A DNA stretch of 64,000 nucleotides, taken from contig CAMBXE010000001.1 of assembly GCA_945871805.1 (NCBI GenBank), positions 14,985 to 78,984 on the forward strand, written 5' to 3'. The position numbers were made by a program, and so were the translations under genes. Positions 62,045 to 62,520 of the stretch are shown piece by piece (position 1 is the stretch's first letter; each line of letters opens with the position of its first letter). This DNA comes from Rhizobium sp. Q54. GTDB lineage: Bacteria > Pseudomonadota > Alphaproteobacteria > Rickettsiales > UBA1997. The notes under the pieces were generated by a model. It was not told where the DNA came from, ran no database searches, and saw only the letters and a list, made by a program, of their open reading frames with translations.

Positions 62045-62520
62045 TTGTAAATCAGTGGAAAAGTACCCGAGCTTCTGTTGACAGGCGCCCGGGCGAGCCC
62101 CGACTATTTCATTTATGCAAAAGCAACTTTTGTCGCTGGAGCAAGTTCGAAATTGTCATTAGCAAAGTTATCGTTTGCATTTACTTTTTTTGAACGGATG
62201 TCACGAGGTTCGCACCACGCGGCCGGCAGTTTCTCAACCGGGCAAAGTTAATTCCTTTAGCGAATGTCGAAAGCTGATTCACCCCCAAATATATCGATAC
62301 TTCTCTAAGGATTTTGAGATGGATGCTAGGCAGAAATTTTTTTATGAGGTAATGTATCAGGACATACATGACCGAAGTAAAAAAATTTCTAACAACGCAG
62401 ACGCTCAAAAGCCGACGAGAAATGGTGGAGGTGCTGGGTACCGCCCCCAGGTCCATAACGTTTATTGCGAATTACATTTATCACCATAGCTCCTCAAACC
62501 TTACAGCTCAAGGGCGCGGC
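62045..62520 (-). ncRNA. ssrA: two-piece (circularly permuted) tmRNA; boundaries approximate
   Basis: Acceptor piece ends ..CTGGGGGCGGTACCCAGCACCTCCACCA at 62423. Coding piece starts GGGGGTGAATCAGCTTTCGAC at 62286. Tag ORF 62178-62113 encodes ANDNFANDNFELAPATKVAFA then a stop. Confidence 0.85.

Follow-up and report, generated by a model that had tools for sequence, protein, structure and literature searches.

Does a transfer-messenger RNA (tmRNA) tag that carries the module ANDNF twice in tandem reflect an accident of a single genome, or are both copies of the module read and maintained? The question is raised by the tmRNA gene ssrA and the gene directly behind it, sspB, which encodes the alpha-type ClpXP adaptor SspB, in a 64,000-nucleotide (nt) stretch of contig CAMBXE010000001.1 (hereafter the window, at its full length). 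The tag frame on the minus strand (62113-62178) translates to ANDNFANDNFELAPATKVAFA, 21 residues followed by a TAA stop, or 22 residues when the alanine carried by the tmRNA is counted. Module 1 (62164-62178, minus strand), GCA AAC GAT AAC TTT (GCAAACGATAACTTT), begins with the resume codon GCA (62178-62176) and is followed by module 2 (62149-62163, minus strand), GCT AAT GAC AAT TTC (GCTAATGACAATTTC). Both encode ANDNF, yet all five third-codon positions differ between them. The remainder of the tag, ELAPATKVAFA (62113-62148, minus strand, including the stop at 62115-62113), has a C-terminus of the A-x-A class. The tag sequence, frame, resume codon and stop proposed in the initial annotation were confirmed by ARAGORN, by direct translation and by Rfam, and the exact duplication of the module at the peptide level (62178-62164 and 62163-62149) and the AFA terminus likewise proved real upon translation.

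To collect relatives, the window SspB was aligned with homologues and GTDB genomes, one for each species, were scanned with the result, which yielded 76 loci. These come from metagenome-assembled genomes of uncultured, mostly freshwater organisms, with SspB proteins 52-92% identical to that of the window. The genomes are labeled Rickettsiales or Alphaproteobacteria, two of them 'Rickettsiales bacterium UBA1997', and the window locus belongs to a freshwater Rickettsiales-like lineage, probably GTDB family UBA1997. Members of this family have been described as freshwater Rickettsiales that are epibionts on cryptophyte algae (preprint 10.1101/2023.01.31.526412). About a third of the related loci have a tmRNA that ARAGORN failed to detect, among them the closest relatives with a short intervening segment (L001-L005), and a six-frame regular expression search was used in place of ARAGORN alone to find tags. 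In one relative (L060, 2542-3008) the resume codon was placed by ARAGORN 13 codons too early (AQASKGIRSKTINANDNFANDNIEFAPVAIAA), whereas the tag read in the conserved register is ANDNFANDNIEFAPVAIAA. Tags called automatically in this lineage should be checked.

With ARAGORN and the six-frame search combined, a tandem ANDNx-ANDNx tag was found in 72 of the 76 related species-level loci. The four loci without a tag call comprise three whose upstream sequence is no longer than 100 nt, plus L073. The tandem tag was also present in three metagenome contigs whose SspB is 94% identical to that of the window (L001-L003) and in the four loci L160-L163, which belong to a divergent sister group. A search with the divergent SspB of L070 reached this sister group, and no other Rickettsiales families were among its matches; a profile mixing the Agrobacterium and Caulobacter proteins with three SspB sequences of the clade led back to the clade itself. 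Because the architecture recurs in 72 of 76 related loci, the tandem duplication is not a product of chance. Since tandem tags were found down to 52% SspB identity, the duplication is old and fixed in the lineage. It can no longer be regarded as a peculiarity of the window genome, as the initial annotation had implied, but extends across a family-level clade.

The variation within these tags is informative. Variants in the lineage include ANDNVANDNF, ANDNFANDN followed by V, L, I, S, Y, Q, A or T, and forms with a spacer of two to three residues (ANDNYNLANDNF and ANDNFAFSNDND); in no tag was the aromatic fifth residue lost from both copies. Codon usage was analyzed in the 67 species-level genomes with a strict 5+5 layout. 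In both copies, codon positions 1 and 2 of A-N-D-N were invariant or nearly so, the lone exception being one Glu codon, GAA, as the third codon of module 1. The wobble bases of N2, D3, N4, D8 and N9, on the other hand, were either C or T, the rarer base having a frequency of 33-45%. The 30-nt module region occurs in 32 different forms, which encode no more than 10 different peptides. Even relatives with a 94% identical SspB differ synonymously from the window in module 1. This three-base periodicity shows that both ANDNx copies are translated and that purifying selection acts on the peptide they encode. The resume point lies accordingly ahead of the repeat: UAAA at positions -5 to -2 before the first GCA was conserved in 100% of the 67 genomes, and with the codon periodicity of copy 1 this places the duplicated part inside the translated frame. 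The resume context in Escherichia coli, UAGUC|GCA, has the same register as the UAAA before GCA of the lineage. The duplication is thus common among relatives, as the initial annotation had allowed for, but probably not without effect, since the codon-periodic conservation argues that both copies matter.

We favor, with modest confidence, a reading in which this is an ordinary ssrA-sspB locus, each ANDNF copy being a putative register for SspB and sspB being expressed partly by read-through from ssrA. The two-piece tmRNA adds the 21-residue tag, whose N-terminal half is the ancient tandem duplication. By analogy with E. coli and Caulobacter, each copy may act as a binding register for the co-encoded SspB-alpha adaptor, which would tether the tagged protein to ClpX via its conserved C-terminal tail. 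In E. coli, the AANDxxY/F portion at the N-terminus of the tag is what SspB recognizes, and ClpX binds the C-terminal residues (PMC9963277); the same is reported for Caulobacter. Two registers may raise the chance of capture by SspB and, with the distal copy in use, the distance from SspB to the degron would be longer and simultaneous engagement of ClpX presumably easier. The genes sspB, plsY and pyrF would then owe at least part of their expression to transcription running on from ssrA. For the E. coli tag, tight packing of SspB against ClpX has been described, with stronger delivery when residues are inserted; the N-terminal adaptor site and the ClpX degron at the C-terminus are contacted at the same time (PMC9963277). 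The suggestion of the initial annotation that the tag offers two docking sites to SspB is plausible on these grounds. Since the two units abut, we think that their alternative occupancy is likelier than simultaneous occupancy. In either case the tandem tag is a variant of the known ssrA-sspB system and reveals no new kind of system.

Several observations weigh against this reading. The copies are contiguous, and simultaneous binding of two SspB subunits is hence sterically doubtful. The fifth residue was F in 64 of 67 genomes in copy 1 vs 53 of 67 in copy 2, so the copies may not be equivalent. Some wobble positions were fixed (in GCA, TTT, GCT and AAT), which indicates some constraint at the RNA level as well. 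In some relatives (L043, L037 and L057) the terminal hairpin of the tmRNA with its U-run resembles a full terminator, which would favor a separate sspB promoter there. Finally, ClpX, ClpP and SmpB were not seen: motif scans of the 64-kb window detected none of clpX, clpP, lon and smpB.

The unequal fifth residue and the fixed wobbles also lend themselves to an explanation in which one copy alone is the SspB site and the other is a spacer, the determinant of another reader (ClpA/ClpS, Lon or FtsH), or, in the case of copy 1, needed for resumption. Copy 2 lies 9-11 residues from the C-terminus, close to the 7-8 residues that follow the single module of Rhizobiales-like tags, which fits as well. 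A mere spacer, however, would not hold A-N-D-N invariant in 67 genomes with drifting wobbles, and a pure RNA requirement would not yield three-base periodicity in copy 1; we regard a single site as possible but unlikely. Much less credit can be given to the duplication as a neutral relic of a 15-nt slippage without functional consequence. Tandem 15-nt duplications do arise easily, but this one was retained intact while SspB diverged to 52% identity and the C-termini of the tags changed repeatedly, and unrelated tmRNAs carried by phages have a tandem tag of a similar kind; a relic is thus very improbable. Resumption at the second alanine codon, GCU (62163), would give the single-module tag ANDNFELAPATKVAFA. 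It is formally conceivable in that both copies open with an Ala codon, but nothing positive speaks for it: ARAGORN and the Rfam alignment both set the canonical GCAAACGA at 62178, the UAAA conservation belongs to the first GCA, and the synonymous-only variation shows copy 1 to be read as codons. We consider it hardly credible.

The AFA terminus raises a separate alternative, which concerns the protease. The C-terminal tripeptides were tallied over 76 lineage tags. The x-AA class accounted for 40 of them (LAA 17, VAA 17, IAA 6) and the A-x-A or S-x-A class for 34 (AFA 13, AIA 8, SFA 4, ALA 3, ATA 2, AVA 2, AMA 2), the remaining two ending in VAV. A-x-A ends occurred almost always on the longer tags of 20-24 residues. 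A switch from ClpXP to Lon as in Mycoplasma, or else a weak ClpX degron that enforces adaptor dependence, could account for such ends. AFA is the terminus described for Mycoplasma tags, and in E. coli a terminal Ala-Ala dominates the strong C-terminal degrons (PMC10862746). Against it, SspB with a conserved tail was present in every A-x-A genome, so that delivery to ClpX is presumably still used; a hydrophobic penultimate residue seems tolerable, FKLVA being degraded by E. coli ClpXP with a Michaelis constant similar to that of YALAA (PMC10862746); and the two classes interleave on a neighbor-joining tree of SspB. We judge this alternative to be rather improbable. The interleaving suggests that A-x-A and x-AA ends are nearly interchangeable, and ClpX may go on recognizing A-x-A as a degron, if perhaps a weaker one. 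A Lon-directed AFA tag of the Mycoplasma type was rejected for the window: the terminus fits but the class fails, as SspB with its conserved tail stands beside ssrA in every A-x-A genome examined.

How the A-x-A ends came about is hinted at by the stop codons. The tag of L011 (2861-2926), ...FAPVAVAALA, resembles ...FAPVAVAA (L015, L035, L049) plus two codons. Tags of the x-AA class stop at UAG, followed by UAUAAG, whereas the UAA that closes A-x-A tags falls a few nt further downstream in the alignment. Loss or shift of the stop codon, as L011 suggests, can turn an x-AA tag into one with an A-x-A terminus. A 2014 review described ALAA as conserved 'except Mycoplasma', whose tags end in AFA as ClpXP, ClpAP and Tsp are absent (PMC3985003). 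Nearly half of the species of the present lineage share an ending of the kind deemed a Mycoplasma-only exception there, and their tags qualify the generalization that (A)LAA ends are found wherever ClpXP is used.

The tmRNA tag is a textbook bipartite degron, the SspB- and ClpX-binding halves of which were dissected mainly in E. coli and Caulobacter. Here, a whole lineage has the adaptor-binding half duplicated and more conserved than the protease-binding end. It thereby represents a natural experiment on the trade-off among adaptor avidity, spacing and degron strength, and it supplies testable peptides together with the sequence of the cognate adaptor. One speculative possibility, to which we assign little weight, is that the tag has become adaptor-centered: the doubled SspB site would be invariant, and the C-terminus would switch repeatedly between autonomous (LAA/VAA/IAA) and weak, SspB-dependent A-x-A ends (AFA/AIA/ALA/AMA/SFA). 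If so, the fate of rescued proteins would be tunable through the level of SspB, by the cell or by a phage with a tandem-tag tmRNA, and the SspB level may be coupled to ssrA transcription through read-through.

To place the tandem tag among those of other Alphaproteobacteria, metagenome contigs were scanned with an alignment of SspB proteins headed by that of Agrobacterium, which gave a sample of 80 Rhizobiales-like loci (L080-L159). All 42 tags found in this sample were single-module tags of 12-13 residues, for example ANDNNAKEYALAA, ANDNYAEARLAA and ANDNYAPVAQAA. The Rfam alpha consensus is single-module as well, and the second ANDNF of the window aligns to it as an insertion; the premise of the initial annotation that one ANDN module is usual in alphaproteobacterial tags was thus borne out. 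Among the samples drawn, the tandem unit evidently sets the lineage of the window apart. The Rhizobiales-type loci share the permuted alpha-type RNA, the position of ssrA upstream of sspB and the SspB tail VVSLDAFRKK, and differ in their short single-module tags and in the spacing between tag stop and sspB, which amounts to about 200-300 nt vs about 73-92 nt in the lineage of the window.

The tandem unit is not confined to this lineage: a pattern scan of IMG/VR revealed the tandem tag ANDNIANDNYSEYRLAA in five contigs of T4-like myoviruses (L164, L166, L167, L171 and L183). The phage tmRNAs are of the permuted alpha type, with RF01849 scores of 115-126 bits in all three phage contigs scanned (in L164 the gene lies at 1211-1571). 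These contigs encode gp32 (57% identical to cyanomyophage gp32), KdsA and a SleB-like hydrolase. Like the window RNA, the phage tmRNAs are alpha-type permuted and have a tag opening with ANDNx-ANDNx; unlike it, they are carried by phages, have no adjacent sspB, and are not closely related to it in sequence. Two further pattern matches (L165, 3004-3090, and L172, 2366-2452, both IMG/VR) were false positives caused by a low-complexity (ANDNN)x6 stretch in a viral open reading frame unrelated to tmRNA. Anaplasmataceae tags in the tmRNA Website reportedly also have two ANDN-like units (such as ANDNFVFANDNN...). Phage-borne two-piece tmRNAs of the alpha type are known from Melnitz-like phages and pelagimyophages (PMC9004378). 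A full-text literature search for the tag strings turned up no description of the tandem tag. The tandem tag therefore appears to be undescribed in the searchable literature, although tmRNA databases derived from GTDB genomes surely contain such sequences already (PMC11915505).

Among characterized systems, that of Caulobacter crescentus comes close: it is reported to comprise a two-piece tmRNA with the tag (A)ANDNFAEEFAVAA and an SspB-alpha. The permuted alpha-type tmRNA, the tag opening with ANDNF and the homologous SspB are common to both, but the Caulobacter tag has one ANDNF, 13 encoded residues and a VAA end, whereas that of the window has two ANDNF, 21 residues and AFA. The E. coli system (AANDENYALAA, SspB and ClpXP) is bipartite in the same way, with the adaptor site towards the N-terminus of the tag and the ClpX degron at its C-terminus. 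Its tmRNA is, however, one-piece, its adaptor site is single and its tag ends in LAA; E. coli sspB is not known to be linked to ssrA. An engineered E. coli tag, DAS+4, reportedly reads AANDENYSENYADAS. It has a partly repeated adaptor site, a lengthened spacing and a non-canonical C-terminal degron, the same layout as the window tag; DAS+4 is, however, a designed tag in E. coli, and AFA as a weak ClpX degron in the window is a conjecture. Mycoplasma tags share the C-terminal tripeptide AFA but are otherwise unrelated in sequence and occur without ClpXP and SspB, whereas the lineage of the window keeps a conserved SspB.

The RNA itself is a functional-looking, circularly permuted two-piece tmRNA of the alpha type, on which covariance models and gene order agree. 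The alpha_tmRNA model RF01849 matched at 62062-62554 on the minus strand with 145.5 bits (gathering score 50, E value 7e-40), and tmRNA_permuted RF04321 matched the same locus with 112.2 bits (gathering score 47). ARAGORN called a permuted tmRNA at 62022-62518 (minus strand) with the tag frame, including its stop, at coding positions 341-406, corresponding to 62178-62113 of the window. The gene order is permuted: the acceptor piece, which carries the T-arm and the CCA, comes first, then an intervening segment and then the coding piece. From the Rfam structure line and alignment and by counting along the sequence, the core of the acceptor piece (62423-62485, minus strand) contains a P2 strand, the T-arm with its stem at 62450-62446/62438-62434, the acceptor 3' strand CACCUCC (62433-62427) and ACCA, the encoded CCA ending at 62423. 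The coding piece (62065-62286, minus strand; Rfam and clade alignment) comprises the acceptor 5' strand, P2, the pseudoknot region, the tag frame and a terminal hairpin. Its acceptor 5' strand GGGGGUG (62286-62280) pairs with CACCUCC, and the alanine identity pair G3·U70 is present as G62284 with U62429.

The intervening segment (62287-62422, minus strand) links the encoded CCA to the coding piece and should be cut out of the mature RNA. Its length is 136 nt in the window, compared with about 23 nt in L001 and L004, relatives whose SspB is 92-94% identical to that of the window. By the clade alignment, the insertion of about 110 nt is unique to the window, and its sequence is also unique within the window; the long segment was for that reason rejected as a copy of a palindromic repeat element that occurs elsewhere in the window (see below). 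Across the lineage, the total length of the tmRNA gene ranges from about 358 to 538 nt. The terminal hairpin (62065-62094, minus strand) has the stem GCCCGGGC/GCUCGGGU and the loop GCCUGUCAACAGAA, followed by ACUUUUCC, and folds with -30.5 kcal/mol (z = -2.3). It was found in all 37 loci that were folded singly, where the stems vary between species but the arms stay complementary and the loop CCUGUCAACAGAA is conserved. RNAalifold did not recover this hairpin from a MAFFT alignment of the spacer between tag and sspB, owing to indels.

The adaptor gene sspB (61521-62039, minus strand) encodes 172 residues ending in the conserved C-terminal tail IDLSAKVISLDAFRKNK. Residues 12-145 match Pfam PF04386 with 117.1 bits against a cut-off of 27, and the protein is homologous to Caulobacter SspB structures 2QAS (E value 7.5e-29) and 2QAZ (5.6e-28) and to Agrobacterium 2NYS (2.2e-29). 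In 27 homologues and in the 76 loci the tail motif DLSAKVISLDAFRK was invariant or nearly so and resembled VVSLDAFRKK of Agrobacterium; in the form (V/I)(V/I)SLDAFRK it was kept in every genome, whatever the C-terminal class of the tag. The conserved SspB tail motif is said to bind the N-domain of ClpX.

The tag stop lies 73 nt ahead of the sspB ATG and the terminal hairpin 25 nt (10-38 nt in relatives). In 67 of the 70 evaluable lineage loci sspB is preceded on its own strand by a tag frame no more than 750 nt away, at a median stop-to-sspB distance of 91 nt and commonly 72-92 nt. The Rhizobiales-like sample shows this order too: of its 65 evaluable loci, 42 have ssrA directly ahead of sspB in the same orientation, the median stop-to-sspB distance being 219.5 nt. 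The initial annotation was thus right in placing ssrA immediately upstream of sspB on the same strand, but the linkage is not unusually direct: adjacency appears from these counts as a widespread alphaproteobacterial arrangement, of which only the spacing is tighter in the lineage of the window. No sigma-70-like promoter and no called terminator were found between tag and sspB in the window. Because only 25 nt part the last tmRNA hairpin from sspB and neither promoter nor terminator was called between them, read-through of transcripts from ssrA probably accounts for at least some of the expression of sspB, plsY and pyrF.

Downstream, the ATG of plsY (60925-61524, minus strand) overlaps the stop of sspB (ATGA, 61521-61524), and pyrF (60231-60923, minus strand) and a Mur ligase gene on the same strand come next. 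The four genes sspB, plsY, pyrF and Mur ligase form a tight same-strand block behind ssrA, the order of which is kept in L001 and in L160-L163, and they probably constitute an operon. Elsewhere in the window, the lone match of the motif scan for AAA+ proteases was a Walker A motif, MTGPTGSGKTTTLY, at about 45789 on the plus strand, which is typical of secretion ATPases of the GspE/PilB type.

A palindromic repeat element of about 160-185 nt also came to light, of which the window holds three copies (27193-27373, 49527-49702 and 62829-63009), zero being expected by chance. It has the terminal arms AACCCAGATCCGTCATTAGAATT, with nested inverted repeats inside. The third copy overlaps the 3' end of a DUF167/yggU open reading frame (62556-62870, plus strand) and supplies its last codons; the element recalls the Rickettsia palindromic elements, which insert in frame. 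In the window, the DUF167 gene, on the strand opposite to ssrA, and the palindromic element fill the region 62556-63122 between ssrA and an exonuclease III-like gene (63123-63947). Both are missing at the matching site of the close relative L001 (2478-2540), which points to a recent insertion or deletion beside ssrA.

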